Below are positions 1 to 48,234 of a stretch of 55,934 nt of DNA, piece after piece. Within the stretch, counting starts at the first letter, position 1. Each line of letters opens with the position of its first letter. The position numbers and the translations under genes are program-made. The notes under the pieces were generated by a model. It did no database searches. It saw only the letters and a list, made by a program, of their open reading frames with translations, and was not told the origin of the DNA. The stretch comes from Candidatus Aenigmatarchaeota archaeon. GTDB lineage: Archaea; Aenigmatarchaeota; Aenigmatarchaeia; CG10238-14; SpSt-28. The stretch covers positions 1 to 55,934 of the forward strand of contig JAWBAC010000002.1 in the NCBI GenBank assembly GCA_038997355.1, in the 5' to 3' direction.

Positions 1-178
1 TTCTGGCCTTTGCTCTAGCTATAGAAGCTGCAGCAACAAACAGACTATCTACCCAAGTTAATCTTTCCTCTGGATCTTTTGCTAACTCTAAAACATCTTT
101 TCTAAACAAAGTAGCAAAAAATAAGTAGTTCTGCAACTCTTCTATCTCTTTTTTACCTACAGGGTTTAAAGGTATCAT
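1..178 (-). CDS. Hypothetical protein, N-terminal fragment (continues past the left edge)
   Basis: Not in the ORF track because it is truncated. The minus-strand ATG at 176-178 overlaps the TGA of the upstream KaiC-like gene as ATGA. The frame stays open to position 1 ([58 protein letters not shown]...). No family recognised. Confidence 0.35.
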
Positions 179-897
179 AATTTAACTATTCTATCTTTAT
201 GAACTATTATTCCTTTGTCTGTTATTTCAAACTCATGCCTTTTCATAGAATGAGAAGTTCCTCTCATTTTCCAAATTATTAAAGATCTTTTCAGTTCGCC
301 ATTAATTTCATCTAAATCTAATCTAATTATTCCATCTACTCCATGTTCAACTCCAGGACCACCGAAACCTCTTTCTCCTACACTTATTTGGCTAACAAAA
401 ATGCTAGTAGTACCTAAACCAGCAAAAACTCTCTTCAAAGTTAATACTATTTTTCTGGCAACACTAGGCTTATCTATGTATAATGATGTAACACTATCAA
501 TAACAACTCTTTTAGCATTAACATTATTTACAGCTTCTCTTACAACATCTATAAACTCTCTTAAATCTGTCAAATCTTGTACTATATATTTTTCATATTC
601 TTTTGCTTTTCCAATTCCACTACTAAATGCATCTACCAAAGCAAACATGTTTTTCTCTTCATATGGTTTAACATTCCAACCAAATTGTAACATATTTTGT
701 CTAACTTGAGCTGGATGTTCTTCTAGTGCAACATATACACCATTTTCTTCCATCTGTAATCCATTCCATAAAAACTGCTGTGCAAAAATAGTTTTTCCAG
801 TACCTGGTCCGCCGCTTAATAAAACAACATTTCTTTCTGGAATTCCTCCATTTAACAAATCATCTAAACCAGGTATTCCAGTCTTTACTCTTCTCAT
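175..897 (-). CDS. KaiC/RadB-like RecA-superfamily ATPase (single-domain archaeal KaiC homolog)
   Basis: N-terminus [34 protein letters not shown] (Walker A). Walker B-like [10 protein letters not shown]. The length and layout are typical of archaeal KaiC-type ATPases. Confidence 0.85.
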
Positions 898-911
898 AAA
901 TTAAATATTGA

Positions 912-3641
912 TCAAAAATATAAACTCTTTGATTTTGCATTAGAAGAATAAAATACTATTTCTCCATTGCAAATATGACAAATACCATTTAATGTAGGTC
1001 TTCTATATACAGTAGAGCAGTTATTACAAATAAAGCCAATTAAATCTTCATACTTTATTTTATCTGCTATCCCTTTTGAAACTTGTTTTTCTTCGCTACC
1101 ATTACCATTTTTTATTGTATCTTTTATTAAAGAAAGTAAAGAAATTTGCCTGCTTCCTGTTATGAATTGAGAAGATGATATACCTATAACATTAAAAATT
1201 CTTTCTAGCGGAGGCAATAATTGATGATAAATATAATAATCTGCATCTATAGGTATTTTGTTTTTCTTAACGTATTCTGGAGTTTCTGCTCTTTCAACAA
1301 TTTTTTGTGGACCAGCAACTATTACATAACTTACTCTATCTCCAACTCCAGGAATATTTGTTTCGCCTCTTCTTATCATCTTTTTAACCAATTCTATGTG
1401 TGGTTGCTGTCCTTTGTATTTATCTAAGGGTCTAGAGATTGATTTTACAATTGCTAACTTTTCTACATCTATTTCATTGTTTTTCAACTTTCTAAAAATC
1501 TCTCTAACATATTCAAAAGCTTTTTTCTTATCTCCTTCTATCAACAAAATTTCTATTACTTTAGATAAAGTTTCTGTAACTAAATCACACCAATCTCTTC
1601 TAACAGTTTCTACTCCTTTCATAACTATTTTGCCTTTGTCATTCACATCTTCGAATAAGTATCCAACATATTTCTTTTTTGTTATGAATATTATTTTCTT
1701 CATCACACCTTCTATTTTCATCTTTATGTATTCTGGAGTTTTTGAATTTACATATTCTTCTACTTTTTTTCCTATTTCAAAAACTTTTTCAAAACTTTCT
1801 ACATTATTTCCAACTTTTATCATTACAGAATCAGTATCTCCATAAACAACTTCGTAACCAAGCTCTTTTTCTACAATATCTTTTACTCTTGTTATCCAAA
1901 ATCTACCATAAGCAGTTATAGTATTAGCTATGTCAGAAACAAAAAATCTAGCCCTTATATATCCGCTATATCCATAAAATGCGTTTGCTAAAAGCTTTAG
2001 TGCTAGCTGTTTTGCATCCAACAAATTTTTCTTTATTGGATCTTGCTCTTTTTTCATTAAACTTTTTACTTTATCTCTTTCTTCAATCAATCTCTTTAAA
2101 ACTCTTGGAAAAATTCCTTCTCTTACATTTTTAGAAACAAAATAAGTTTTAATTGGAGATTCTATAATTTCTAAACCTTCTACTTTATTTTTTAAATATG
2201 TTGTAGGACAAATATTATATTGAATTATTAAACTAGGATATAGCGACTTAAAATCTAAATAAACAACGTTTTCATGCAAACCTGTTTTGGGTTCTAATAC
2301 TATTGCTCCTTTTACTTCCTCTTTTTCTCTTTCTTTTAATTCTTTTTTGCTTGGTTTGTTAGGTATAACTATATCTTCTTTATTAAACTCTCTTAATAAG
2401 AATTGCTCTATTCTCGATGATTCACTCCCACCTAAAGAATCTTGCAATAGTAAACCACTTAATCTAGAAATTTCTATGTATTGAGAAATAAAATCTCTAC
2501 TCAGCATTATTTCTAAAACTAATTCTGCATCGGTTTTTGCATATTTTATCAATCTTAACAAATCTTCCTTATTTCCTTTCCACAATTTTATTATTTCACT
2601 TTTATCGACATCCTCCTTAGTCTTACCTATAAGAATTTGAGAAATATCTCCCAAACCTAATCTTTTTGTTTTTAACATACCTTTCTTAGAAAACTCTTTA
2701 AGTATTTCATAGAAATCTATTATTACTCTTCCAACAATAGAGTTTTTATATCTTTCTTCTCCAACTTTAGAAACTTTTGCAGATTTTTTTGCTCTACCTA
2801 AGTATGGTTTTATTTTGTTAATTCTACATCTCTCTACAATATAAGGAATATCGAAATTGTTAATGTTATATCCTATCAAAAAATCAGGATCAAACTTCTT
2901 TACTATTTCTAAAAACTTTTTTAACATTTCCGCTTCGCTATCAAAACTTAATATATAATCATATTCTTTCTCAAAATCAACTTTTTTTGATAATAAAACT
3001 AGGTTTTTCTTTCCTTCGAACTCTGGATAAAAAGCCAAAGAAATTATTGATATTGGATGTGTCTTTACGTCAGGAATTCCTGTTTCATTTGCAACCTCTA
3101 TATCAAAAGAGAGTATTTTAAAGTTAGGTAACTTATTTTCATCGATTTCTTCAAATTTAGTTGCTTCAAATTTTAAATCAGTGAAAACTGTTTTGGTATG
3201 ATTAACAAATTCTCCTTCTGCAACATACCATTTACATCCAGCGAGATTATTATCTGCCATGAATCTATACTTGAAAAGTATATCAGCTTCGAATGTTTTT
3301 TCAACAAAATCTTGAGAATGTAAATCTTCTCTAATTAATGGAACTTTTGAGGGATTTTTAAGAGTTATTTTATAGAGTTTTGTTTTTTCTTTTTGATATC
3401 CAATGGGCAAAAACTTTTCTACTTTCTCAACTTTTACTATTAAATTTTTATATTTTTTCTCTAGCAAATCTAAAAATTTTTCTTCACTATTATCTTTTAT
3501 TTTGACATAAAAATAAGGAAAAAAGTTTCTGACAAAAATCGTAATAGAATTATTAGAATCTGTTTTTCCATAAATTCTTATTAAAGGTACGTCATCTACA
3601 ATATCATAATCTACATCCAATAAGAAAAAACTAACTTTCAT
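912..3641 (-). CDS. polB: Family-B DNA polymerase (PolB-1) with an extra C-terminal zinc-ribbon tail
   Basis: Exo I SFDIEV, Exo II GYNINNFDIPYI, Exo III YAKTDAELV. Pol A DFKSLYPSLII, Pol B KLLANAFYGYSGY, Pol C YGDTDS. After the usual C-terminal region (SRQISLLSLIKD) there are 68 more residues, including CNNC-x12-CHIC (nt 969-1028). Confidence 0.95.
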   Translation of the reverse strand: MKVSFFLLDVDYDIVDDVPLIRIYGKTDSNNSITIFVRNFFPYFYVKIKDNSEEKFLDLLEKKYKNLIVKVEKVEKFLPIGYQKEKTKLYKITLKNPSKVPLIREDLHSQDFVEKTFEADILFKYRFMADNNLAGCKWYVAEGEFVNHTKTVFTDLKFEATKFEEIDENKLPNFKILSFDIEVANETGIPDVKTHPISIISLAFYPEFEGKKNLVLLSKKVDFEKEYDYILSFDSEAEMLKKFLEIVKKFDPDFLIGYNINNFDIPYIVERCRINKIKPYLGRAKKSAKVSKVGEERYKNSIVGRVIIDFYEILKEFSKKGMLKTKRLGLGDISQILIGKTKEDVDKSEIIKLWKGNKEDLLRLIKYAKTDAELVLEIMLSRDFISQYIEISRLSGLLLQDSLGGSESSRIEQFLLREFNKEDIVIPNKPSKKELKEREKEEVKGAIVLEPKTGLHENVVYLDFKSLYPSLIIQYNICPTTYLKNKVEGLEIIESPIKTYFVSKNVREGIFPRVLKRLIEERDKVKSLMKKEQDPIKKNLLDAKQLALKLLANAFYGYSGYIRARFFVSDIANTITAYGRFWITRVKDIVEKELGYEVVYGDTDSVMIKVGNNVESFEKVFEIGKKVEEYVNSKTPEYIKMKIEGVMKKIIFITKKKYVGYLFEDVNDKGKIVMKGVETVRRDWCDLVTETLSKVIEILLIEGDKKKAFEYVREIFRKLKNNEIDVEKLAIVKSISRPLDKYKGQQPHIELVKKMIRRGETNIPGVGDRVSYVIVAGPQKIVERAETPEYVKKNKIPIDADYYIYHQLLPPLERIFNVIGISSSQFITGSRQISLLSLIKDTIKNGNGSEEKQVSKGIADKIKYEDLIGFICNNCSTVYRRPTLNGICHICNGEIVFYSSNAKSKSLYF

Positions 3642-3673
3642 GATTTAAAATAATAAGCATCGATATATATGGC

Positions 3674-4684
3674 TTACTCTACTAAATTGTATATTTTTCT
3701 TTCCTTTAAATCCAATAAACATCCTTTAATATTGGAAGTTATTTCTGCAACAATAGGATTTGATTCAGATATCATAGCTTCTTTATTTTGCGAATTATAA
3801 AGTATAAAAACATTTGGTAATTGAAAAATTAATGCCAAATCTTCCTTATATTTCACAAACTCTTCAAATTTTGGTGTTACTAGTCTTGTCTTTAAAAAGA
3901 AATCTAGATCGAAATTTACTTTACTTACATCTATCGCAACAAAGAAAAAGTTTTCTATGTAAAACTTATGAATGTAAACTTTTTTATCTAAATAAACATT
4001 GTTTCCATCTATCTTATTTTCATCAGCTAAATATATGTTTATATCAGTTTGAAAATTATTACTTAGTTTTTCATAAAAAAATCCTATTTTTAATTCTAAC
4101 TGCGAATTTTGAGTAGATATTTTTTCAAGCTCTTTTTGTTTAAATTCGGGAAAAATTATATCTTCACAAACTATCTTAGAATCTTCAAAAAAACATTTTA
4201 CTCCAATTACAACATCTTCCTTCAAATATTTTAAATGTTTTTTAGCTTTTTCAGATAGAATTAATTCTACTTTTGACGACAAATCTTCTATCACAACTTT
4301 CTCGTCACTAACAGAATACACAATTCCTATTACTGAAAATGATTTAAACCTTTTAGATATCTTGTTTATAGAAATTGGATTGAAAAAAATAATATCGTTT
4401 TTTATTATTTCAGAAAGTTTTTCATATCTTTTTTTAAGCAGTTCTATGTAATCTATTATTTTTATTTCGTTGTATAAAGTCGGAAAAGACATAGAAATTT
4501 TAAAACTTTTCCTTTTTCTTTCTTTTAGAATTTTTTCTATATAATCCTTCTCTAGTACTTTTGGCTCTTGAACTTTTGGTAAAATTTCGAGAAGAAGTTT
4601 AAAATCTTCATCACTTAACGATGAAATATATTCAACATCTCTAACCAAATATCCTTTTTTTAAAAGTTCTAGTATTCTATTCAT
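3674..4684 (-). CDS. DNA polymerase B-subunit / PolD-DP1-like protein with a truncated, apparently inactivated phosphodiesterase domain
   Basis: The N-terminal helical segment (MNRILELLKKGYLVRDVEYISSLSDEDFKLLLEIL) resembles DP1 N-termini. The OB-fold segment is FSVIGIVYSVSDEKVVIEDLSSKVELIL...EDVVIGVKCFFEDSKIVCEDIIFPE. The C-terminal ~150 aa resemble the distal half of the calcineurin-like PDE fold (FLKTRLVTP, DLALIFQLPNVFILYNS). The DxH, GDxxDG and GNHD metal-binding motifs are missing. Assigned by eye, not by search. Confidence 0.5.
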   Translation of the reverse strand: MNRILELLKKGYLVRDVEYISSLSDEDFKLLLEILPKVQEPKVLEKDYIEKILKERKRKSFKISMSFPTLYNEIKIIDYIELLKKRYEKLSEIIKNDIIFFNPISINKISKRFKSFSVIGIVYSVSDEKVVIEDLSSKVELILSEKAKKHLKYLKEDVVIGVKCFFEDSKIVCEDIIFPEFKQKELEKISTQNSQLELKIGFFYEKLSNNFQTDINIYLADENKIDGNNVYLDKKVYIHKFYIENFFFVAIDVSKVNFDLDFFLKTRLVTPKFEEFVKYKEDLALIFQLPNVFILYNSQNKEAMISESNPIVAEITSNIKGCLLDLKERKIYNLVE

Positions 4685-4688
4685 TTAA

Positions 4689-4955
4689 TTACCTTTTAGT
4701 AGTTTCCAAATAATACAAAGTTATACCTTTTTCATTAGCTTTTTTTGAGTGTGGAGTCTCCATTTTTTTAACTCTATCTAGTCTAACAAGCTCTTCTAAA
4801 TATTTTTTTGTTGTATTCCAACTAATCTTTTTGTTTAACCTTTCAGAAATAAACATTGTAATCTTTCTAACATTAGAAGGATATGGATGTAGAGAAAAGT
4901 ATTCTTCGATCAGGCTATAAATTTTAAATCTTAGTGAAGGTCTTCCCCTTTTCAT
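4689..4955 (-). CDS. Small winged-helix DNA-binding protein
   Basis: 88 aa. A helix-turn-helix-wing pattern (NVRKITMFISERL...SWNTTKKYLEELVRLDRVKK...GITLYYL). It is the first gene of the apparent wHTH/B-subunit-like/PolB-1 operon and ends 4 nt before the next gene. Confidence 0.55.
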   Translation of the reverse strand: MKRGRPSLRFKIYSLIEEYFSLHPYPSNVRKITMFISERLNKKISWNTTKKYLEELVRLDRVKKMETPHSKKANEKGITLYYLETTKR

Positions 4956-5187
4956 AATAGTATTTTTTATAAACTTTCATAATATAGTTTGTGGAAGTAT
5001 ATAATAACTAAAATTAAAATAATTTGCAAAATTATTTCAGTTTCTAAAAGTTTTTATCTTAAAAATTAAAAATATAACACAGTTATAAAATTTATTAAAA
5101 ATAATTGAAAATTTTTTAATTCGCAATAAAAACAGATACACAATTTTTATTTGTTGTTAAAATGATTACACTACACAAAAAACCATT

Positions 5188-5334
5188 TGACAATTCATAA
5201 ATAATATTTGAGTGTTCATACTAAATATTTGAAAATTCATAAAAAATGTAGGAAATTTCATAAAAAAAGTCGGAAAATTCACAAAAAATATTTGAATGTT
5301 CATAAAAAATATCAGAAAGTTTTCAGAAATTGTA
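5188..5334. repeat. Tandem 21-bp iteron-like repeat array (6 good units plus 1 degenerate)
   Basis: Units: tgacaattcataaataatatt (5188), tgagtgttcatactaaatatt (5209), tgaaaattcataaaaaatgta (5230), ggaaatttcataaaaaaagtc (5251), ggaaaattcacaaaaaatatt (5272), tgaatgttcataaaaaatatc (5293), agaaagttttcagaaattgta (5314). The TTCAT core starts at 5194, 5215, 5236, 5257, 5278 and 5299, exactly 21 bp apart. Confidence 0.9.
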
Positions 5335-5403: not shown

Positions 5404-5676
5404 CTAGTAAAACTCTCTTATAAAATCTTTTATAAATTCAATTAGTTTCTCTCCTTTTTTTGTTAATCGAATTACTTTGTTTCTTCCATGTTTTTCAAAT
5501 TCTATAATATCCATCTCATATAACAATTTTAACATGTTTAAAGTATGTGAATAAGTTGTTTGAGTTTTTCTGTATATTTGTGTTATGTTTTTTTCTTTCA
5601 AATCGGCTAGTGATAACAATAATTTGAATGGTTTTTCTTTAAACAAAAAATCAATGATAGATTTTTTACTCGGCAT
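5404..5676 (-). CDS. ArsR/MarR-like winged-helix transcriptional regulator
   Basis: 90 aa. LLLSLADLKEKNITQIYRKTQTTYSHTLNMLKLLYEMDIIEFEKHGRNKVIRLTKKG is a classic wHTH layout. It overlaps the Bud32 3' end by 11 nt. Confidence 0.6.
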   Translation of the reverse strand: MPSKKSIIDFLFKEKPFKLLLSLADLKEKNITQIYRKTQTTYSHTLNMLKLLYEMDIIEFEKHGRNKVIRLTKKGEKLIEFIKDFIREFY

Positions 5677-6271
5677 TTTTTATTGTATATCTACCTCTTT
5701 GTAGTATTTTATTCATTCTTTCTACAACCTTTTCTCCTTCAGAATAAAATTCTTTATAACTTTCGAAGAAAATTTTTATAAATTCTTCTGCAAAAGTTGA
5801 AAAAGAGGATTTAACTGAATAAACTAAAGTTAATAAATCTTCAGCTTTTTTCTCTAAAGAAGTAGTAAATTCTCCAAGTCCAAAATCTATGAGCCAGATT
5901 TTATTTTCTTTGTCTATAATTAAGTTTGAAAGAGTTAAATCACCATGAACGATATTATTTTTGTGCAAAATTCCGATAATTTTTCCTAATTCAGTGGCAA
6001 TTTCCTTATAATTGTTTTCATTTAGAAACTCTTTAAGTTTTTTACCATCTACGAATTCCATAGAAAACCAAAAATCATTTTCTTCTAAAACTCTTGGCAC
6101 GTTTATTCCAATTCTTCTTACCTCTTTTAGTAATTTAATTTCTTTTTTGTTTCTTTCTCTTCTGATTTTCTCATCTAACTCTTTTAATCTATAAGATTTT
6201 TCAATCCTTTTCTTAATTATTTTTTCATCAATTTTTTCTATTATTGCTTCTGCACCTTGATAAATTATCAT
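5666..6271 (-). CDS. bud32: Bud32-type atypical protein kinase (KEOPS subunit)
   Basis: ~200 aa. GAEAII, catalytic loop IVHGDLTLSNLII, then WLIDFGLGEF. The small size is typical of archaeal Bud32. Confidence 0.85.
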   Translation of the reverse strand: MIIYQGAEAIIEKIDEKIIKKRIEKSYRLKELDEKIRRERNKKEIKLLKEVRRIGINVPRVLEENDFWFSMEFVDGKKLKEFLNENNYKEIATELGKIIGILHKNNIVHGDLTLSNLIIDKENKIWLIDFGLGEFTTSLEKKAEDLLTLVYSVKSSFSTFAEEFIKIFFESYKEFYSEGEKVVERMNKILQRGRYTIKNAE

Positions 6272-7221
6272 TATTTTTCTTCGTGATCTTCAATACCTTT
6301 TTCTGTAATTTTAAATACAACTTCTCTCTCAGGCAAATTTGGTGCATCTATTAATCTAGCAATTCTTAAATTACCTTTCGATTTTCTAAGATAAATTCTG
6401 TAAAAACTTATATGTGCTAATACATGCCCTCCAACAGGCTGAGTAGGATCCCCAAAAATAACATCAGGCCTTGCCATAACTTGATTAGTAATATAAACAG
6501 CTAAATTAAATGCATCAGCCAATCTTTGAAGTTGATGTAAATGTTTATTTAATTTTTGTTGTCTTTCAGCTAATTCTCCTCTACCTATATAATCAACTCT
6601 AAAATGCGATGTTATAGAATCAACAACTATTAAGCCAATGTTTTTTTCTTTTATTAGATCCACCGCTTTTTCAACCAACAGAATTTGATGATCGCTATTA
6701 TAAGCTCTTGCAACATAAATGTTTTTCAATATTTTATCAGCATCTAACCCTCTATTCTTTGCAATTTCAGCTATTCTTTCTGGACTAAATGTTCCTTCAC
6801 TATCTATAAATAAACAACCTCTTCCTAAACCACCTTGATCCTCTGGCAATTGAACATTAATAGCTAGTTGAAATGCTAGTTGTGTTTTTCCACTTCCAAA
6901 CATACCAAAGGCTTCTGTTATTGCTTGTGTAGGTATTCCGCCACCAAGCAAATCGTCCAAAGCTTTTGAGCCAGTAGTTATTTTTTTCATTTTTAATCTT
7001 CTTTCGAGAACTTTATCAGCAGTTTCAACTTTTATTCCTAAAGCATCTCTAACATTTTCGATAATTTTTCTTGCTTGTTCTTCACTCATTTCAAGTAATG
7101 CAGCCAACTCAGAAGGATTGCTAGTTGCAATAATCATAGGATCTTTAATTCCTAATTCCTCTAATTTTTTAAGAGTTTTTGGTCCGATACCTTTAATGTC
7201 TTTTAAGTTTATCTCTTCCAT
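6271..7221 (-). CDS. radA: DNA repair and recombination protein RadA
   Basis: N-terminal HhH ([20 protein letters not shown]). Walker [10 protein letters not shown]. Walker [20 protein letters not shown]. Full-length archaeal RadA architecture. Confidence 0.97.
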
Positions 7222-7237
7222 AACATTATTTACATTC

Positions 7238-8239
7238 CTATGTTTTTATTTTTTCAAATAGATATTCTATTTCTTTCTCTAAATTAACGTTTTCGACTTC
7301 GTTTATCACAAACTCAATTGTATTTAAGAATTTATTTTTTCTTGCTCTTCCTTTTATCATTAGCATTTTTCCAACTAACAATTGATTAAGATATTCTTTT
7401 AAGTTATCGATTTTTTCTAAAACGTCAACTTTACTTTCTACAATTTTTTCTGCCGTTTCTCTAAAAGCAACAGCAAGAAAATTATGAGAGAATGTATTGA
7501 TTTCCAATCTTAAGTATAAAGAATTTTTAGGTTCTATTTCGCCATGAATATCACATATAAATTTTTCTTCTTTCTTTCTAACTTTATTAGAACATATAGG
7601 ACAAACTTTAAAGAAAAAGTTTTTACCAAAAACTTTAGTTATGATTCCAACAGTTTCATAATAACCAATAGAATTTAGTGGTCCTTCTAATTTTCTGTAT
7701 TTATCTTTTGTAAACTTTTCTATTAAAGAATCTATGCTTGGTAAATCATCTCTTTCATCAAATTCGATAGTAGTGTTTTTATCTACAACAACATCAATTT
7801 CACCAAAAATGTTTTCTCTTGTTCGAGCATTATAAATTTTAAGAATGTCGCCTTCTTTTATTTTCATTTCTTCTGCTTCTTGTGCATATTCATTCCAGAA
7901 AACTAATCTTGCATAATCTGTATCATCAGCTACTAGAAAAACTTTTAATAAACCTTTTTCTTTGTTTTTTCTTTCAAATTCTTTAAGAGGGAAACTCTTA
8001 AAAACTTTAACTCTTACATTAACATTTCTTACTCCGCTAACTAATTCACTAAGAGGAGTAAAAGTTTTTATGTTTCTTATATCTATCCCATAATCTCTAG
8101 CAACTAAAATTGCTGCACCTTCCTCGCTTATTAAACCACTAAACTCAAATAGTTTTTGCTTAATTTCTTCTCTTATTTTTTCTTCCGGAACTTTAAATTT
8201 TTCTTTTATTAATTTAATTATTTCTTCAACCTTTCCCAT
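7238..8239 (-). CDS. rpa: Replication protein A large-subunit-like ssDNA-binding protein (OB fold plus zinc ribbon)
   Basis: N-terminal segment [19 protein letters not shown] is typical of euryarchaeal-type RPA. OB-fold block [14 protein letters not shown]...LVFWNEYA...GDILKIYNA. Zinc element CPICSNKV...CDIHG. Confidence 0.8.
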
Positions 8240-25330: not shown

Positions 25331-26116
25331 ATGAAAAAAGATTTACTATTACAATTTTTAAAACTTAAAAATGAATTAAAAAACAAAATAGAGGAATTAA
25401 AACAAAAAGATAAAATAGTTTTAGAAAACTATTGGAACGAATATCTTCCAACTAAAAAAGAATATAATTCTGCTGCTATCGATGGTAGTTATAACTATTT
25501 AAGATATAGGTCCTTAGTTTTTTATACAATTAACATATCTTTAGTTGAATATAGAAACAAACAAATAATTAGGAAGAGTTTTCCAGAATTTGATGTTATG
25601 GAAGATTTTATGTTTTTCGAAGATTTTCTGAGAACAGAAATGATAAAAAGAGAACTGTTGTTAGCAGCAGAAAAAATTGAAACTTCTAATATAATGTTAG
25701 ATGGTTCATTAATATCTTTTTTAACTTATGTGCCAGAAGAAATTCGAAAATCATTTTTAGAAAAAGTTGAAACATCTCAGAATTTTATTTTCTCTATATC
25801 TAAAACGCCGATGAAAAGTTTTTCGGAAGTAAATAAAGAGGGGTTTTCAAAAGTAATTTCACATTACGAAAAATACAACATAATCTCTTTTTACTTTAAA
25901 TTAAGAAAAAACTCTCTTATATTTAAAGTTGAGACATTTAAAAAGTTTGAAGATAGAATAGAAGATATAATTTCTTTAATAAGATTTTTTGAGTTTCGAG
26001 GATATCCATATTTACTTAAAAGAGCACACGAAGAAGCAAAAATTAGCAATAAAGACATTCAAAAATTTGCAAAACTTTTAGGAATAAGAGAAAAAACAGG
26101 AAGAGAAATATTATGA
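25331..26116 (+). CDS. nurA: NurA-like 5'-3' nuclease
   Basis: The AAIDGSYNY catalytic-Asp motif, a second LDGSLISF block, and translational coupling to HerA (ATGA overlap). Confidence 0.7.
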   Translation: MKKDLLLQFLKLKNELKNKIEELKQKDKIVLENYWNEYLPTKKEYNSAAIDGSYNYLRYRSLVFYTINISLVEYRNKQIIRKSFPEFDVMEDFMFFEDFLRTEMIKRELLLAAEKIETSNIMLDGSLISFLTYVPEEIRKSFLEKVETSQNFIFSISKTPMKSFSEVNKEGFSKVISHYEKYNIISFYFKLRKNSLIFKVETFKKFEDRIEDIISLIRFFEFRGYPYLLKRAHEEAKISNKDIQKFAKLLGIREKTGREIL

Positions 26117-27576
26117 GCGAAGAAATTATTGGAAGATGTATAGGAGAGGCAAAAATTAACGAAGTAGAATTTCTTTCAACTAAGTTGCCAGAAGTTGGAA
26201 AATATGTTATATTAGAATATGATAATAAAAAAGTTTTAGGAATGATCGAAAGTTTAACAAGGTTTCATCCTGCGTTGTTAGAAGATGTCTATAACGAAGA
26301 AGAGATAGATTCTATAAAGAATTTTGAAGAAGACATGCAAATAATAAAAGGAAAAATAAAGATTCTGGGAGAAGTAGATACTTTAAAACTTCCTAAAATT
26401 CCACCAGCACCAGGAACGATAGTCAAAGTTGCAGATAAAGAAACTCTAGAAAAAATTTTTGGTAAAAGCGAAAAATCTATAAGTATAGGAAAGTTACTTA
26501 GTAACGAAGATGTTGAAGTTTATATAGATGTTAATAAATTAGTTTCGAGACATTTAGCAATTTTATCTATTACAGGAGCGGGAAAATCAAATACAGTAAG
26601 TGTTTTATCTGAAGGCATTTCTAAATTAGGTGGTACTGTTCTTATTTTCGATATGCATAGCGAATATGTCGATGCCGAATTTTCCAAGAAAAAAATATTA
26701 GATACCAAAATTAATCCATTATTTTTACATCCAAAAGAGGCCGCTAGATTAATTAACATAGAGGAAAATGCTTACATACAATATATGTTTTTTAGAAAAG
26801 TTTTTGAAAAAGTAAAAAATGAAATATTAAAACAAAACATTAAATTAGATACTGATATATTTTTCGAAACAATGATAAAAGAATTAGAAAGAGAAGCAAA
26901 AAAAGAAACAAGCTCTTCAGAATCTATTTACAAAGTTATAATGAAATTAGAAGACTTTAGAGAAAAGTTTGGAGAAATATTAGACTTAAGATACGATGAG
27001 ATTACAAATATAATCGAAAAAGGAAAAATAAACATCGCAGATTTAGGTAGTGTAGATGAAGAAGTTGCAGACGTTTTTGTAAGCCATACTTTAAGGAAAT
27101 TGCTAGAAGAAAGAAAGAGATATAAATCTATAGGTAAAGGTTTAAGTTTTCCAGTTTTTGTTGTTATAGAAGAAGCTCATATATTAATTCCGAAAGATTT
27201 TGATACATTTTCTAAATATTGGGCTTCTAGAATTGCAAGAGAAGGCAGAAAGTTTGGAATAGGTTTATGCTTAGTAAGTCAAAGACCCAAAGCTTTAGAC
27301 GCAAACGTATTAAGTCAAGCTAATAACATGATAATATTAAAGCTGATAGAACCAAATGATCAAAAATATGTTCAAGCTGCTAGCGAAATGCTTACAGATG
27401 AATTATTAGTACAACTTTCATCTCTTAATGTTGGAGAAGCAATAGTTTTTGGTCCAATGATAAGAATTCCTGCGATAGTGAAAATTCATGAGTTTAAAGG
27501 AAAAATTAGCGGAAAAGATATCGATTTTATAGAAGAGAGTAGAAAAGAAGAAAATTCAAGTGAAGATTTAATATAA
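26113..27576 (+). CDS. herA: HerA-type hexameric DNA helicase/translocase ATPase
   Basis: N-terminal HAS-barrel-like segment. Walker A LSITGAGKSNTV. Walker B VFVVIEEAH. LVSQRP. Confidence 0.85.
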   Translation: MSEEIIGRCIGEAKINEVEFLSTKLPEVGKYVILEYDNKKVLGMIESLTRFHPALLEDVYNEEEIDSIKNFEEDMQIIKGKIKILGEVDTLKLPKIPPAPGTIVKVADKETLEKIFGKSEKSISIGKLLSNEDVEVYIDVNKLVSRHLAILSITGAGKSNTVSVLSEGISKLGGTVLIFDMHSEYVDAEFSKKKILDTKINPLFLHPKEAARLINIEENAYIQYMFFRKVFEKVKNEILKQNIKLDTDIFFETMIKELEREAKKETSSSESIYKVIMKLEDFREKFGEILDLRYDEITNIIEKGKINIADLGSVDEEVADVFVSHTLRKLLEERKRYKSIGKGLSFPVFVVIEEAHILIPKDFDTFSKYWASRIAREGRKFGIGLCLVSQRPKALDANVLSQANNMIILKLIEPNDQKYVQAASEMLTDELLVQLSSLNVGEAIVFGPMIRIPAIVKIHEFKGKISGKDIDFIEESRKEENSSEDLI

Positions 27577-34554: not shown

Positions 34555-35145
34555 ATGAAATATACAATTTATTTACTTTTAACAATTTTCGTAGTTTTCA
34601 TTCTTCAAATAATTATAGTTAATTTTACAGAGACGTTTTCTTTAATTCCTAGAAAGGTGCTTGAAGGAGAAGTGTGGAGAATTTTTACATCTATTTTTTT
34701 GCATGGAGATTTTTTGCATTTATTCTATAATTCTTTCGCTCTTTTAATTTTCGCTCCTATATTAGAGAATACTATTGGCCATAGAAGATTTTTGATTGTA
34801 TTTTTTACTAGCGGAATTTTAGGAAGTATCGCATATTTATTAACAAGCTTAGTAATTAATGATCTCGATATACCAGCTTTAGGGGCTAGTGGAGCTATCT
34901 ATGGAGTAATAGGAACATTAGCAATATTAAGGCCAACAACGATAGTTTTTGTTTATTTTATTCCTGTACCTTTATTATTTTTAGCAATGTTTTGGATTAT
35001 TACAGAATCCTTAGGAACTTTACTACAATTGTTTGGTTTAAAAACTTCTATAGCATATCAAGCCCATCTCGCAGGATTGTTATTCGGAATTTTTTATGGA
35101 TACAGATTGAAAGAGAGAGGCATAAAAATTAGATATTATTTTTGA
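34555..35145 (+). CDS. Rhomboid-family intramembrane serine protease
   Basis: WRIFTSIFLHGDFLHLFYN, catalytic GASGAIYG and HLAGLLFG. Confidence 0.9.
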   Translation: MKYTIYLLLTIFVVFILQIIIVNFTETFSLIPRKVLEGEVWRIFTSIFLHGDFLHLFYNSFALLIFAPILENTIGHRRFLIVFFTSGILGSIAYLLTSLVINDLDIPALGASGAIYGVIGTLAILRPTTIVFVYFIPVPLLFLAMFWIITESLGTLLQLFGLKTSIAYQAHLAGLLFGIFYGYRLKERGIKIRYYF

Positions 35146-37583
35146 AAGAACTTAGCTAAAGAGGTTTGTTTAGTTCCTCTTAATATATCGCTTTCACTAA
35201 CATTTAAAACTGAAAGCACTCTTAAAGCTGCAGGTAATATTTGATTTGAAATATAATATTCAACATCCACATCTTCTTTTTTTACAAACAGAGCATATTC
35301 AGCTTTTTCAGAAATAGAACTTCCAAACTTAGTTATTACAAAAGGTATTATACTCCCTTCGGATATTTTTATTCCTCTTTGTATAGCTTTTTTTGCTGCA
35401 ATAACATGAGGGCTTATTTGTTTGTACTCACTAATGTTTTTTGTTAATTGTTCATATATGGTTACATCTTCTAACTTAAACTCATAATTTCTTAATTTTT
35501 GAATTACATTTCTAACATATTCTATAGCTTTTTTAACATCATTCTCTTTAAGTACTATTTCTAGAACATCTCTTTGTACAATTTTTGCTAATTTACACCA
35601 ATCTCTTCTTACAGTTTCGAAACCTCTAATCTCTAAGGAACCATCTTCACTTAATAAGGCATATCTCTTTTTAGCACCAGCTTCTTTCTCTCTCTTCTTT
35701 ACAAAAATTCCTCTGACATAAAAACCTCTAAATTCTAATTCCATTTTACTTTTCAAAGAAGAATTCACTAAATTTAAAAAGTTTTGTGCAGATTTTATAA
35801 AATCTTCTTTATTGAGCTTTGAAGTTATCATTAAAGAATCTGTATCTCCATATATTATTTCAAAATCGAAATTCTTAGCTAATTCAGCAACTTTTTTAAT
35901 ATAGCTTCTTTCGAATGCTGTAACACTTTCTGCACATTCTCTTTTATACCATCTCGCACCAACATAACCCAAATATCCATATGTTGCGTTTGCAAGAATT
36001 TTTAGAGAATACTGTAAAGCATCTAGTAATTTATATTCTTCACTATTTTTATCTAAATTTTTCATTAACTTTTTTATTCTTGCCCTTTCATCAATTAAAA
36101 ATTCTAAATGCTTAGGTATGAAACCTTTTCTTAATGTACAAAAGTGATAGTTTAGTTCTGGCACTTTATTTTCTGCTTTACAAACTTCATGCTCACAATT
36201 AAAAGTATCTATTGAAATGTTGTGTGCAACTATTATTGTAGGATATAGAGATTTAAAATCAAGCACAATTATATTTTCATGTATTCCTGTTTTTGGCTCA
36301 AAAACAAAAGCACCTTTATATGGAGCTTTTAATCTTCTTATTTGTAATTCTTCGTGCTTAGGTCTATTAGGCGCAATTTGATTATCATAGTATGCGTTTT
36401 TTAGAAGATATGCTTCTACTAGCTGAGAATATGTATTTCTACAAACATCAAACAAGCTTAATGATGTTAGTTTAGATAAAGCTATCATTTGCGGTAAAAA
36501 TATTTCTAAAAGCTTTAATACTAATTCACAATCCCAAACATTGTATTCTATTGCTTTTCTTATATCAACTCCTTGTTTAAATATAAGTTGCATTTCCTCA
36601 AAGCTTAACTCTTTTTTTCCATAGCCCAAAAATTCTTTTGCTACAGCATCTAAGGTTAAAACTTCAGTTTTTATGTTTGGAGATAAAATATGATCAACAA
36701 AAACGTATAAATCCAAATAAACTCTTCCAGGAATTTTAAAAGATTTTACCCAACCTCTCTTTACAGCTTTTATTTTTGAATTTTCTTTACCTATGTTTAA
36801 TTCTAATCCATATTTTTCTGCTTTTTCTTTTAATAAAGGTATATCGAAACCATCCGTATTATATCCAACCAGAATGTCTGGATCCTTTTCTTTTATTATC
36901 TCTATAAATCTTTTTATTAATTCTTTTTCTGTTTTAAAATTTTCTACATTATCAAATTTTTCTCCAAAATCCAAACTTAGTGTTATTTTATATCCATCGT
37001 TTCCAACTATAGATATTAATGCAATCTTTTCAGAATCTTTTTCTTCAAAGATTTCAATATCAAATGCATATATTTTTAATTTTGGTAGTTTGTTAATTTC
37101 TATTTTTTCAATCTTTTCTGCCAAAATCTTTTCATCTTTTTTTATTCCATAAACTTTTAACCAACTTGAAGGCAAAACATTATTATCAATTAAAAATCTT
37201 CTGTAAAAAGGAATATCATATTCAAAAGTTTCTAAAACTTCGCTAAAATTATCTTTTATAAATTTCCTTACTTTTGGGATTTTTCTAGGATTGTTAATAG
37301 TAATTTTTATTACTTTCACTTCTTTTCCCAAAAACTCTTTTCTTAATATTTCAACATTTTCTATTTTTGCTTCTGGAATTTTTGTTTTTTTAATTTTTTC
37401 TATAAATTCTGGAATTAACTCTTCTTTAACTAATACATAGAAATATGGCAAAAAGCCTTTATAATATACAACTAAATTATTACCTTCTAAATCTTTACAA
37501 AACATTCTTATTATTGGCTTAAATTCTTTAGTAAGTACATAGTCAATATCTAATAGAAATACTTCTTTTTCTACTTTTTCCAT
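35136..37583 (-). CDS. polB: Family-B DNA polymerase (PolB-2), canonical length with C-terminal PIP box
   Basis: Exo I AFDIEI, Exo II GYNTDGFDIPLL, Exo III YNVWDCELV. Pol A DFKSLYPTIIV, Pol B KILANATYGYLGY, Pol C YGDTDS. It ends in QTSLAKFFQK (Qxx[L]xxFF). Confidence 0.95.
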   Translation of the reverse strand: MEKVEKEVFLLDIDYVLTKEFKPIIRMFCKDLEGNNLVVYYKGFLPYFYVLVKEELIPEFIEKIKKTKIPEAKIENVEILRKEFLGKEVKVIKITINNPRKIPKVRKFIKDNFSEVLETFEYDIPFYRRFLIDNNVLPSSWLKVYGIKKDEKILAEKIEKIEINKLPKLKIYAFDIEIFEEKDSEKIALISIVGNDGYKITLSLDFGEKFDNVENFKTEKELIKRFIEIIKEKDPDILVGYNTDGFDIPLLKEKAEKYGLELNIGKENSKIKAVKRGWVKSFKIPGRVYLDLYVFVDHILSPNIKTEVLTLDAVAKEFLGYGKKELSFEEMQLIFKQGVDIRKAIEYNVWDCELVLKLLEIFLPQMIALSKLTSLSLFDVCRNTYSQLVEAYLLKNAYYDNQIAPNRPKHEELQIRRLKAPYKGAFVFEPKTGIHENIIVLDFKSLYPTIIVAHNISIDTFNCEHEVCKAENKVPELNYHFCTLRKGFIPKHLEFLIDERARIKKLMKNLDKNSEEYKLLDALQYSLKILANATYGYLGYVGARWYKRECAESVTAFERSYIKKVAELAKNFDFEIIYGDTDSLMITSKLNKEDFIKSAQNFLNLVNSSLKSKMELEFRGFYVRGIFVKKREKEAGAKKRYALLSEDGSLEIRGFETVRRDWCKLAKIVQRDVLEIVLKENDVKKAIEYVRNVIQKLRNYEFKLEDVTIYEQLTKNISEYKQISPHVIAAKKAIQRGIKISEGSIIPFVITKFGSSISEKAEYALFVKKEDVDVEYYISNQILPAALRVLSVLNVSESDILRGTKQTSLAKFFQK

Positions 37584-45363: not shown

Positions 45364-48234
45364 ATGAGTCACACATTTCTACAAAAAATAAAATTTATAA
45401 TTTTAATAATTTTCCTATTTTTCGTAACTACTCTTATACCTGTAGAATCTGCTAAATATTTCTTGAATAGCATAGTTGAACAATGTAGCACATATAATGC
45501 AGATAAAATAAATAGCGAAGATGGATTGTATGCTAGATACGCATATGGCGGCAATTGTAATAAAAATTGCGGATATTTTGCATATACAGTATATGATTTT
45601 GGTAGAGAGGTATCATTTTCATATATGTATATAAGAGGTGCTAATGGATTTGGTTGTTCTTATCCTTATTGTACTGGTCCAGAAACCGTAAAAATTGGTA
45701 TAAGTTTAGATGGAAGAAATTGGAATTGTAATGTTTATAATGGTCAAGGATTACCTACCAATTCATTGGGCAGCACAACTTTTAATTTTGGTCAAACTCT
45801 GAGAGCAAGATACGTTGTTATATATAGAGGAGCAAGTGGCCCCGCTAGAGGAGATCCCATAGTTGATTGTATTGCTTTTTGTGATAATTATAACGAATGT
45901 ACAAGTTGTGCTCAGGTTTCTCAATGTCAAGTAACTTTAAATTCATTAACATTAAATCCATCATCAACAAGTCAATGTGGTCAATCCATTTCACTAACCG
46001 CAACTGTTAGTTATTCTGCAAGCGGAAGCTGTCAGAATCAATATATAACTGTTTATAAACCAGATGGAAGTAAATTATGTGATATCCCAATAGATACTTC
46101 AAAAACAAGTAATTCATGCACTGCAAATTATAATGTTCCATCTCAAAGTGGGACATATACTTTTAAAGCAACTTATGCTTCACAAGAAAAAACTGCTAGT
46201 TTAAGTGTCAATTGTCAACAAGCAAATAAAAATCCCGTTTGGATTAAGTATTTTTCCAATGCCTCTCAAGCATTTATAAATCAACCAATATTATTTTCTA
46301 GTTTGTGGAATGCAACAAGAGACAATTCTCAAAATGTTTATCTTTCTCACTTTATATTTTCATATAAATTAGGCAATAATCAATGGATTAACGAAACATA
46401 TGTTTTTTCTCAACAAACTAATAACTGGCTTTCTGGTTGGCAGTATAGAATTCCAATTACAATTAAAGAAAATTCTGGAAATACATTAACAGATTATCAA
46501 GTTTTAATTGCTTTAAATACTCAAAGTTTAATATCTCAAGGAAAAATGAGAAATGATTGTGGAGATATAAGATTTACTGATAGCGATGGAATAAGTTTAT
46601 TAAATTATTGGCTTGAATCTGGTTGTAATTCCGCAAACACAAAAATATTGGTTAAAGTTCCAAACATTCCAGCAAACGGTCAAAAAACAATTTATGTTTA
46701 TTATGGAAATCCAAGTGCTACAAGTTTAAGTAATGGAGATAATACTTTTATATTTTTTGATGATTTTAGCTTTAAGGACACATCAAAATGGACTTGGCCT
46801 TCAGATTGGACTGTTGAAACAGGATATGCAAAACAAACTTATTCACAAGATTGGCCGCCTTCTGGGCCTAATAAACATATATTTCCTCAACCTATTTCAA
46901 TTTCATCTTCGGTTGGAATTGCTATAGAGACTTACGTGAAAAATTTAGGAACGGTTTATGCATATGATTTGCAAATCGGTGTTACCGACGGTAATATAAG
47001 AAGAGAAGCAAACTGGGCAGTTGGTGCTTGGGATTTTCTTTTTGTAGTAAATCTAGAAGATTGGGGAGAAGCAGATACTAGAAATTGGAATCCAGTTACA
47101 TTAATAGTGAGAAATGGTAATCAACAAATCTATATCAACGGTATTTTAGAAAAAACTAGTACAGTTTCTATAACTACAATTTCATCAGTAGACATTAGAT
47201 CGAAAGGTCAATCTTATTGGGATTGGTTTAGAGTTAGAAAATATACTTATCCAGAACCATCTGTTACTATTGGAAATGAAGAAACAAATAAATTATTTAC
47301 TGCTTGGGCAAATGTTACTAAAAGTTTTTCTCAGCCAGGAACTTTATGTTGGAAGTTTTATGCTAACAATTCTTTAAATCTTTGGAATGTAACTCCAGAA
47401 AGTTGTTTAAATATAATTGCACCAGATTATTATTTCGAAATTACATTAGTTCAACCAAAAGAAAGTACTATTAATAATTTGGTTGTTGGAGAAAGCTTAG
47501 ATGTAAAAGCTCATTTAAAAATGATAACTAACTATCAATTCTGCTTGGATATAAATGCTTATATAAGATATAACCAATCAAGTAATATTCCAGATTCTCC
47601 AATTCCCACAACAACAAATTCACTATCTACTGATACGAATCCTATTTCGACTCGAATATGTAATGATCAAACGATTAATTTAGATTATATGATATATGCA
47701 AACAAACCATCATTTAAAATAATAGATATAAGAGTTTGTGATACACAAAACATAAAATGTAATTCTTCAAAAACATTTTATGTAAATGTAAGTTTAGTAG
47801 CTAATAGAGATTTTTCTTTAAAAACAGGATGGAATTTAATTTCTATACCATATAAATCTATTTACTTAGACTTATCTCAAGATGGTTGTAATCTTGCAGA
47901 AAAAATATTCCATTATTATAATTCAACTTCGAAATCATGGCAATATCATAGATTTAACGAACTTAAATATGGAATTGCTTATTGGGTTTATTCAGATAGA
48001 GATTGTACATCTAAAATTTCAGCAAGCGGCAATGTAAATATTAATGATCTTCCAAGAGCTCAAAGAGGAATTAATTATATAGGTTCTTTAACATCTAGTA
48101 AAAGTGTAAATACAATAGCAGCAGCAATAGGTTGTAATAATGCAATCGTTAGATATTGGGATCCTTCATCCAAAACTTTTAAAGATGCAGCTCAAATAGT
48201 TCCCTGGTACGGATATATATTTGAATGTTCTTAA
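45364..48234 (+). CDS. Large secreted multidomain surface protein (Cys-rich N-terminal domain, Ig-like segment, DUF2341-like and LamG/concanavalin-like region, GWNLISIP C-terminal domain)
   Basis: Signal-like N-terminus FIILIIFLFFVTTLIPVESA. The DUF2341-type block is WQYRIPITIKE...DYQVLI...CGDIRFTDSDG..LNYWLE...KILVKVPNIPANG.KTIYVYYGNP. Many Cys and N-x-S/T sites. No C-terminal TM helix. Confidence 0.75.
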   Translation: MSHTFLQKIKFIILIIFLFFVTTLIPVESAKYFLNSIVEQCSTYNADKINSEDGLYARYAYGGNCNKNCGYFAYTVYDFGREVSFSYMYIRGANGFGCSYPYCTGPETVKIGISLDGRNWNCNVYNGQGLPTNSLGSTTFNFGQTLRARYVVIYRGASGPARGDPIVDCIAFCDNYNECTSCAQVSQCQVTLNSLTLNPSSTSQCGQSISLTATVSYSASGSCQNQYITVYKPDGSKLCDIPIDTSKTSNSCTANYNVPSQSGTYTFKATYASQEKTASLSVNCQQANKNPVWIKYFSNASQAFINQPILFSSLWNATRDNSQNVYLSHFIFSYKLGNNQWINETYVFSQQTNNWLSGWQYRIPITIKENSGNTLTDYQVLIALNTQSLISQGKMRNDCGDIRFTDSDGISLLNYWLESGCNSANTKILVKVPNIPANGQKTIYVYYGNPSATSLSNGDNTFIFFDDFSFKDTSKWTWPSDWTVETGYAKQTYSQDWPPSGPNKHIFPQPISISSSVGIAIETYVKNLGTVYAYDLQIGVTDGNIRREANWAVGAWDFLFVVNLEDWGEADTRNWNPVTLIVRNGNQQIYINGILEKTSTVSITTISSVDIRSKGQSYWDWFRVRKYTYPEPSVTIGNEETNKLFTAWANVTKSFSQPGTLCWKFYANNSLNLWNVTPESCLNIIAPDYYFEITLVQPKESTINNLVVGESLDVKAHLKMITNYQFCLDINAYIRYNQSSNIPDSPIPTTTNSLSTDTNPISTRICNDQTINLDYMIYANKPSFKIIDIRVCDTQNIKCNSSKTFYVNVSLVANRDFSLKTGWNLISIPYKSIYLDLSQDGCNLAEKIFHYYNSTSKSWQYHRFNELKYGIAYWVYSDRDCTSKISASGNVNINDLPRAQRGINYIGSLTSSKSVNTIAAAIGCNNAIVRYWDPSSKTFKDAAQIVPWYGYIFECS

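Follow-up and report, generated by a model that had tools for sequence, protein, structure and literature searches.

The DNA analysed here, called the window below, is the 55,934-nucleotide contig JAWBAC010000002.1 of a Candidatus Aenigmatarchaeota archaeon (assembly GCA_038997355.1), with a G+C content of about 27%. It carries on its minus strand a trio of genes for a winged-helix protein of 88 amino acids (aa), a 336-aa protein related to DP1, the small subunit of the archaeal DNA polymerase PolD, and a 909-aa family-B DNA polymerase, PolB-1. As an initial annotation made from the letters alone had described, the three genes are co-directional with gaps of 4 nt (88-aa to 336-aa gene) and 32 nt (336-aa gene to PolB-1), which the coordinates of the open reading frames (ORFs) confirm; a gene for a KaiC-domain ATPase follows PolB-1 after 14 nt. 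The features on which the analysis turns, together with the second family-B polymerase of the window, PolB-2, are listed here; AF2 denotes AlphaFold2 and PDE phosphodiesterase.

4689-4955, minus strand: 88-aa winged-helix gene, the first gene of the trio, directly upstream of the DP1-like gene
3674-4684, minus strand: 336-aa inactivated DP1/B-subunit homologue, a putative non-catalytic second subunit (NF003118, profile, AF2 and Foldseek)
4517-4684, minus strand: N-terminal helical domain of the DP1-like protein, residues ~1-56 (AF2 helices 3-9, 17-22, 25-34 and 46-56)
4151-4348, minus strand: OB fold of the DP1-like protein, residues ~113-178 (AF2 strands 115-125, 129-133, 138-143, 158-167 and 170-177)
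3677-4102, minus strand: eroded PDE remnant of the DP1-like protein, residues ~195-336, with five metal-ligand motifs lost
912-3641, minus strand: PolB-1, 909 aa, Pol-delta-like family-B catalytic subunit (Pfam, motif residues and bit scores)
915-1118, minus strand: C-terminal extension of PolB-1, residues ~842-909, absent from PolB-2 (alignments A1 and A7)
948-1037, minus strand: Cys4 zinc ribbon GFICNNCSTVYRRPTLNGICHICNGEIVFY with C872, C875, C888 and C891, that is CNNC-x12-CHIC
5178-5312, minus strand: tandem array of 6.4 copies of a 21-bp unit, TTTTTTATGAAnnTTCaaat in minus-strand sense (Tandem Repeats Finder score 130)
35136-37583, minus strand: PolB-2, untailed family-B polymerase of 815 aa with intact motifs and the C-terminus ...QTSLAKFFQK

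PolB-1 matches the Pfam families DNA_pol_B (PF00136, E = 2e-116) and DNA_pol_B_exo1 (PF03104, E = 9e-41). Every exonuclease and polymerase motif was said to be intact, and we could locate all of them: ExoI FDIE (D180/E182), ExoII NxxxFD (N259/D264) and ExoIII YxxxD (Y367/D371) in the exonuclease part, and motif A (D463), motif B (K549..YG) and motif C (DTD, D602/D604) in the polymerase part. These catalytic residues are invariant across the alignment of PolB-1 with its relatives (A1). Compared with structures in the PDB, PolB-1 scores 357 bits against human Pol delta and 426 bits against the PolB of Thermococcales, whereas PolB-2 scores 162 and 556 bits against the same targets, the latter a Pfu-type enzyme. 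Judged by these scores PolB-2 is an ordinary Thermococcales-type PolB, and the PolB-1 core appears markedly nearer to Pol delta, which is consistent with the published placement of such polymerases in a Delta-like clade. The genome carries two apparently active family-B polymerases.

The two polymerases differ at their C-termini. PolB-1 runs about 68-69 aa past the point at which PolB-2 ends, and the alignment of the two upholds the earlier description of a tail of about 68 aa with a CNNC-x12-CHIC ribbon beyond the normal end of a PolB. The extension consists of a variable linker rich in Gly, Asn and Lys followed by the zinc ribbon; the length of the linker differs between clades and the ribbon is conserved. 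A profile built from the C-terminal 90 residues of seven tailed PolBs was searched against all PDB sequences, and its sole significant matches were large subunits of PolD: residues 1128-1157 of DP2 from T. kodakarensis (6knb_B, E = 7.3e-7) and residues 1120-1149 of DP2 from P. abyssi (6hms_B, E = 2.5e-6). Generic zinc ribbons (the adenylate kinase lid, HypA) came next with E-values of at least 0.03, four to five orders of magnitude away. The matched segment is the C-terminal zinc module of DP2, and the tails of two metagenomic PolBs (L016 and L018; related loci are numbered with the prefix L throughout) match the NCBIfam models of DP2 directly. A YRR..L.G motif common to the tail ribbon and Zn-III of DP2 is conserved. 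Going by this sequence evidence, the tail ribbon of PolB-1 is specifically homologous to Zn-III, the DP1-binding module of PolD. The tail contains four cysteines and one ribbon, with no second metal-binding module that would give it a CysA/CysB pair. A homologue search with the C-terminal 130 aa of PolB-1 yielded a single fragment and was uninformative on the distribution of the tail.

The 336-aa protein is harder to recognise. Searches with the single sequence in Pfam and the PDB gave only noise and did not detect PF04042, although the NCBIfam model NF003118 for the small subunit of PolD aligns to residues 18-193 with E = 6.4e-15. A sequence database search brought up a 70%-identical protein from a metagenome-assembled genome (MAG) of Aenigmatarchaeota, short relatives of 336-396 aa without a Pfam domain and then canonical DP1s of about 520 aa. 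A profile of nine members of the short family, from which canonical DP1 was excluded (A4), matches DP1 in the PDB (6knb_A, E = 3.6e-15) over two segments, one in the OB region and one in the distal PDE region. We discarded as evidence a PDB search with alignment A3, which held canonical DP1s so that the match was built in; a profile of five close sequences (A5) was too shallow (E = 0.27). The AF2 model has a mean predicted local distance difference test value (pLDDT) of 85 and a predicted template modelling score of 0.73. When it was compared with the PDB by Foldseek, ranks 1-37 were all DP1 or B-subunits of Pol delta, epsilon, alpha and zeta, including p50/Pol31, p59/Dpb2 and the Pol alpha B-subunit, and generic OB-fold proteins ranked below. 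The NCBIfam model, the short-family profile and Foldseek thus agree with the original proposal that this is a polymerase B-subunit of the DP1 type.

The architecture proposed for this protein, DP1-type N-terminal helices followed by an OB fold, is likewise supported by the model and the alignments, and the OB strings quoted for it are present. The N-terminal domain aligns with the N-termini of DP1 (A3/A9 and the NF003118 match) and is strongly conserved among the close sequences (A5). The OB fold aligns to the OB domain of DP1 and is the best-conserved part of the protein, with the lowest pN/pS (0.16). The C-terminal half had been described as a shortened PDE domain without the DxH, GDxxDG and GNHD ligands, and we find all five ligand positions substituted or deleted: read from alignments A3/A9 with canonical DP1 and from an alignment of 148 sequences, the Mre11-like motifs GDxH, GD, GNHD, HG and GHTH of canonical DP1 correspond to YEKL, ADENK, a deletion, IDVS and YNSQ. 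About 70-100 aa around GNHD are missing. Distal blocks of the domain can still be recognised (FLKTRLVTP against canonical LLKNRHLAP, LPNVFI against canonical IPDIFV), and because they match canonical DP1 we regard this half as a PDE remnant and not as unrelated sequence. On these motifs the 336-aa protein cannot count as an active DP1 and is predicted to be inactive like the eukaryotic B-subunits.

The eroded half evolves faster than the rest. Compared with the orthologue in L001, it is 62% identical and the OB part 76%. The ratios of nonsynonymous to synonymous substitution rates (dN/dS) against this orthologue are ~0.15 for the DP1-like gene, ~0.23 for the PDE remnant, ~0.10 for the zinc tail and ~0.03 for the PolB core, all of them approximate since dS is near saturation. 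By this measure the PDE remnant is still under purifying selection.

An exhaustive profile search of the protein's family covered 1.84 billion representative sequences and placed 1133 proteins at or below E = 1e-3, 150 of them at or below E = 1e-30; the best 150 matches listed are almost all 300-415 aa long. We tabulated the state of the motifs for 142 proteins, 141 short ones and one of canonical length, with counts that depend on the alignment. Motif III is kept in none of the 141 short representatives, 105 of which are left with none of the five motifs; motifs I, II, IV and V persist in 13 members, forms of ~388 aa such as P0007 and P0009; only the canonical DP1 of 578 aa keeps all five. 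Because motif III is absent from every short representative, inactivation is, as far as these sequences tell, ancestral to the short family, and the gradient of PDE erosion suggests a single ancestral inactivation with independent further decay. The 336-aa protein belongs to the fully eroded majority and lies near the short end of the family.

A further lineage of the same PolB/DP1 system is found at 178-5135 of locus L018 (metagenome contig Ga0080004_1118698, 64.5 kb). Here the DP1 homologue has 389 aa, Pfam Metallophos still recognises its PDE domain, and motifs I, II, IV and V are kept with GNHD lost. The tailed PolB, of 1260 aa, is interrupted by a LAGLIDADG intein.

The gene pair is conserved as a unit. 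The order small gene, DP1-like gene, tailed PolB of about 890-910 aa is found in L001/L009 (GCA_038997305.1), L003 (a 185-kb Joint Genome Institute contig), L004, L006, L007 (GCA_038733315.1, on a 397-kb contig), L008 (GCA_038735415.1), L010 and L011 (on a 549-kb contig). L005 shows the same order with its PolB cut before the tail by the contig end, and in L018 the DP1-like gene lies directly upstream of the tailed PolB. In total the DP1-like/PolB pair is syntenic in 10 of 10 other distinct Aenigmatarchaeota or metagenomic loci with a readable upstream side, so that co-occurrence and synteny of tailed PolB and DP1-like gene, a check that had been suggested for related genomes, hold wherever they could be read; PolB-2, which has no tail, has no DP1-like neighbour gene. 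Between clades the DP1-like proteins are only ~25-30% identical and the PolBs ~50%, which makes the linkage old; recurrence of the tail motif and the gene order in relatives of ~25-50% identity argues against chance. The closest relatives, to which the DP1-like protein is 70% and 38-40% identical and the small protein 85% and 59-66%, all stem from MAGs that NCBI lists as Candidatus Aenigmatarchaeota. A GTDB-wide survey of related loci was thin: the A5 profile returned three genomes only.

Taken together, we consider it very probable that PolB-1 and the DP1-like protein form the Aenigmatarchaeota version of a eukaryote-like family-B polymerase with two subunits. The homologies of both proteins and of the tail, the loss of the PDE motifs, the intact PolB sites, the synteny and the purifying selection come from the present analysis; the physical interaction within the phylum and the absence of DP2 are taken from the literature. 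Such a system is already known. Kazlauskas et al. described in 2020 a PolB group B6 of Aenigmarchaeota in the Delta-like clade, in which B6-aenigma1's C-terminal domain (CTD) carries a single metal-binding motif that most resembles the DP2 zinc motif DP2zfIII, together with a group of inactive DP1 homologues named 'Aenigma_GB_GCA_002789635-like' (PMC7544198). The same study found DP2 absent in most Aenigmarchaeota, equated the motif of the DP2 CTD with eukaryotic CysB, stated that such CTDs mediate the binding of DP1 or B-subunits, and proposed that DP2 was replaced by the B6 PolB and that such a DP1 group might have given rise to the eukaryotic B-subunits (PMC7544198). A 2025 study in Nature Ecology & Evolution then reported Aenigmatarchaeota to be without DP2 while keeping DP1, found by AlphaFold3 and yeast two-hybrid (Y2H) assays that DP1 binds the PolB with a DP2-type CTD, and not other PolBs, in Aenigmatarchaeota and Baldrarchaeia, and attributed the two-motif B6-aenigma2 sequences to Baldrarchaeial contamination (PMC12680538). 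The premise of the initial annotation that archaeal PolBs are generally described without a DP1-type partner has accordingly been outdated since 2020 (PMC7544198). Its inference of a PolB/B-subunit pair holds but had been published before, and the binding that it predicts has been examined in relatives (PMC12680538).

The locus can be understood as a member of B6-aenigma1, with which it has in common the phylum, the intact exonuclease, a single Zn-III-like Cys4 motif and a co-occurring inactive DP1, with no DP2 in the window. The 336-aa protein represents the most eroded end, with five motifs lost and a deletion of ~70-100 aa; otherwise nothing essential differs. The likeness to archaeal PolD (P. 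abyssi 6hms/6t8h/8ppt, T. kodakarensis 6knb) lies in a second subunit homologous to DP1 in its N-domain, OB and PDE folds and in the Zn-III motif C-x2-C-x-x-(Y/F)RR-x-PL-x-G-x-C-x2-C-x-G of the catalytic subunit. However, the catalytic core is of family B here and the double-psi beta-barrel DP2 in PolD, the Mre11-like exonuclease site of DP1 is destroyed so that proofreading would come from the exonuclease domain of PolB, and the ~110-170 residues that follow Zn-III in the DP2 chains of the PDB are absent. With the eukaryotic polymerases delta, alpha, epsilon and zeta (6tny, 3flo, 5vbn) it has in common a family-B subunit with a Cys-rich C-terminal module and a PDE-inactivated DP1 homologue, and by score the PolB-1 core is Pol-delta-like. 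In contrast to them it has one Cys4 motif in place of CysA and CysB, a much shorter CTD with no evidence for an Fe-S cluster, and no identified accessory subunits of the p66 or p12 type; their B-subunits have an inactivated PDE domain, whereas here the domain is also truncated. The PolB3-DP2CTD of Baldrarchaeia carries a DP2-derived CTD as well, in a lineage reported without DP2 but with DP1 and with a Y2H interaction; its CTD is full-length and resembles those of DP2 and the eukaryotic enzymes, whereas the aenigmatarchaeal one is shorter (PMC12680538).

How the pair might work can be outlined from these parallels. PolB-1 would be an active, proofreading, Pol-delta-like polymerase that acquired Zn-III of DP2 at its C-terminus. 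Its ribbon most likely docks on the 336-aa protein, in the manner of DP2 Zn-III on DP1 and of CysB-type modules on eukaryotic B-subunits. The 336-aa protein, in turn, retains its OB fold and N-domain and most likely serves as a non-catalytic scaffold between the polymerase and other parts of the replisome. Because all PDE metal ligands and much of the domain are lost it should be unable to proofread, a task that would fall to the exonuclease of PolB-1. The N-terminal helical domain probably docks on the replisome, by analogy with the binding of Gins51 by the N-domain of DP1 in PolD (PMC9023282). In this lineage the PolB/DP1 pair would replace PolD.

The first gene of the trio had been annotated as a winged helix-turn-helix protein, and the AF2 model bears this out: it is a classical winged helix of three helices and two strands (pLDDT 85.8). 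In the window and in L001, L003-L008, L010 and L011, that is on every readable upstream side, the gene directly precedes the DP1-like gene, and the spacing varies between a gap of 26 nt and an overlap of 17 nt; from this arrangement it appears to be translationally coupled to the DP1-like gene. A segment SWNT..KYL is invariant across the small-protein family (A6), and in Pfam 10 of 12 members weakly match the TBPIP/Hop2 winged helix and DUF7342. Its best Foldseek matches in the PDB are regulators of the PadR, MarR/ZitR and Fur types and the winged helix of Orc/Cdc6, all of them weak (E at least 1.9e-3).

Upstream of the trio, 223-357 bp before its first start codon and within an intergenic region of about 450 bp, lies the 21-bp tandem array, whose motif can be given as TTTTTATGAAnnTTC and as the 21-bp unit TTTTTTATGAAnnTTC. 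The rest of the window contains no exact copy of the motif. Homologous arrays with 4-6 copies in the same position and with ATGAA phased at exactly 21 bp are found in L001 (9323-9461), L007 (7613-7724), L008, L010 and L011 (4363-4493), and in the distant clade of L003, L004 and L005 the same core recurs at a phase of 20-21 bp, inverted and nearer to the start codon (L003 9620-9724). In six of eight loci the observed phased run was reached by none of 5000 Markov resamples. We rejected the idea that the array is part of a small protein-coding gene: an in-phase ATG does open an ORF with FFMNxQI repeats, but L011 lacks a conserved ORF and the distant clade has the array in inverted orientation. 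From their co-conservation, the winged-helix protein and the array probably form a regulator/operator pair that controls the replicase operon; most likely the protein binds the array. A keyword search of the main text of PMC7544198 and PMC12680538 gave no mention of the small winged-helix gene, the 21-bp array or the conserved operon order.

Two other roles for the small protein can be considered. The N-terminal domain of p66/Pol32 is a winged helix that binds the B-subunit. The 88-aa protein could be a structural third subunit of the polymerase, comparable to this domain or to the winged helix of Rpa2, and not a regulator; its strong conservation, its position directly upstream of, and often overlapping, the DP1-like gene wherever readable, and the presence in the PDB of a complex of PolD with the Rpa2 winged helix (9f2a) would fit such a role. 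However, Foldseek favours DNA-binding regulators and Orc/Cdc6 (E of at least 2e-3) and shows no preference for p66N/Pol32N or RPA32, with no p66 or Pol32 chain among the top 50 PDB matches, and the phased array with its invariant ATGAA core in both clades fits a DNA-binding recognition helix in SWNT..KYL. We rejected the identification as a p66/Pol32-like subunit for want of a specific structural match beyond the generic winged helix, and regard a third subunit as unlikely. Still less probable, in our estimate, is that the winged-helix protein binds the iteron-like array and recruits or tethers the PolB/DP1-like polymerase, which would make the array an origin-like or polymerase-loading site and a trace of the descent from mobile elements that has been proposed for the B6 polymerases.

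Several points weigh against our interpretation of PolB-1 and the 336-aa protein as a two-subunit polymerase. The evidence for interaction concerns the proteins of published relatives and not this particular pair, and the representative used in the published Y2H assay is unspecified and may have been a less eroded DP1 of ~390 aa instead of the minimal 336-aa form. The PDE domain, which forms part of the Zn-III binding surface in PolD and in the eukaryotic enzymes, is heavily truncated here. The aenigmatarchaeal CTD has been called 'degenerate', with a predicted structure that differs from that of the longer Baldrarchaeial one (PMC12680538). The assignment of PolB-1 to group B6 is based on the taxon, the tail and bit-score ratios rather than on a tree. 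Finally, neither DP2 nor a canonical DP1 is found in the window, whose ORFs of more than 800 aa encode the two PolBs and a protein with DUF2341, and this absence is seen only within a contig of 55.9 kb.

Some of these observations would suit a DP1-like gene that is a relic or has been repurposed and does not bind PolB-1, with the zinc ribbon serving another end such as contact with DNA or PCNA. The extreme erosion and faster evolution of the PDE half, the 'degenerate' CTD and the fact that single-sequence searches barely recognise the protein point in this direction. However, at least 150 representative clusters retain an intact ORF, even the PDE remnant has a dN/dS far below 1, the tight coupling to a tailed PolB and the YRR..L.G motif in common with Zn-III are conserved, and Y2H is positive for the phylum (PMC12680538). 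We give a relic little chance.

Alternatively, the trio and its array could be the replication module of a mobile element or virus, with iterons, a winged-helix initiator and a polymerase, that has been integrated or domesticated. Direct repeats of ~21 bp beside a small winged-helix gene do resemble plasmid iterons with their Rep protein. For the B4 and B6 PolBs a provenance from viruses or mobile elements has been suggested (PMC7544198). Yet several genomes have the genes in one and the same chromosomal setting, neither an integrase nor any other mobile-element gene is nearby, gene orientation does not change across the array, and the searches gave no relative in IMG/VR and no whole-fold match in BFVD. 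A viral or mobile origin that would be visible today was rejected on the latter grounds, and the module as a whole is very unlikely to be of this kind.

The least credible reading makes the 336-aa protein the divergent small subunit of an ordinary PolD, with DP2 encoded elsewhere, and its adjacency to PolB-1 incidental: the sequence in hand is one 55.9-kb contig, so that DP2 could lie elsewhere in the genome, and a DP2 alignment includes some Aenigmarchaeota sequences according to the legend of Figure S16 of PMC7544198, but PolD needs DP1 for proofreading and all PDE ligands are gone here, the DP1-binding Zn-III module is carried by PolB-1, the adjacency to a tailed PolB persists across relatives of ~25-50% identity, and the phylum is reported to be without DP2 or without an active DP2 (PMC7544198, PMC12680538).

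A PolB with a dead DP1 is the best archaeal model for the origin of the architecture of Pol alpha, delta and epsilon, a significance that has already been recognised and in part tested (PMC7544198; PMC12680538). To this the two-subunit polymerase proposed for the window adds three aspects of modest weight. The DP1-like/PolB pair forms an operon-like unit with strictly conserved order. The second subunit can erode beyond the eukaryotic extent, with the ligands lost and a third of the PDE domain deleted, and nevertheless remain under selection, which helps to narrow down the surfaces relevant to a scaffold. The winged-helix gene and the phased array travel with the operon and offer a testable handle on how a DPANN archaeon may regulate its main replicase.

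The genes that flank the trio on either side are the following.

175-897, minus strand: KaiC-domain ATPase, 240 aa (TIGR03877 thermo_KaiC_1, E = 6e-131)
5404-5676, minus strand: HTH_45 winged-helix protein
5666-6271, minus strand: RIO/Bud32-like kinase
6271-7221, minus strand: RadA
7238-8239, minus strand: RPA-like OB/zinc protein

The KaiC gene had been placed in the same apparent operon. It does follow PolB-1 closely here, and it is retained downstream of PolB-1 only in the window, L001 and L006 and is absent there in L003, L004, L007, L008 and L011; it is on this account outside the conserved unit, and we rejected it as a fixed member of the operon. The four upstream genes form a genome-maintenance run on the minus strand (5404-8239) whose order is common to L001, L007 and L008 and in part to L011. 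The wider neighbourhood in the close clade is that of an ordinary chromosome, with genes for ribosomal proteins, a histone, a glycosyltransferase, the RPA-like protein, RadA, the RIO-type kinase and HTH_45.

Elsewhere in the window, a HerA-type helicase with a HAS barrel and DUF87 is encoded on the plus strand at 26113-27576. An overlapping ORF of 261 aa precedes it, and the two, which span 25331-27576, may constitute a NurA-HerA pair. The 956-aa protein encoded at 45364-48234 on the plus strand contains DUF2341 as its sole recognisable domain (E = 2e-29).

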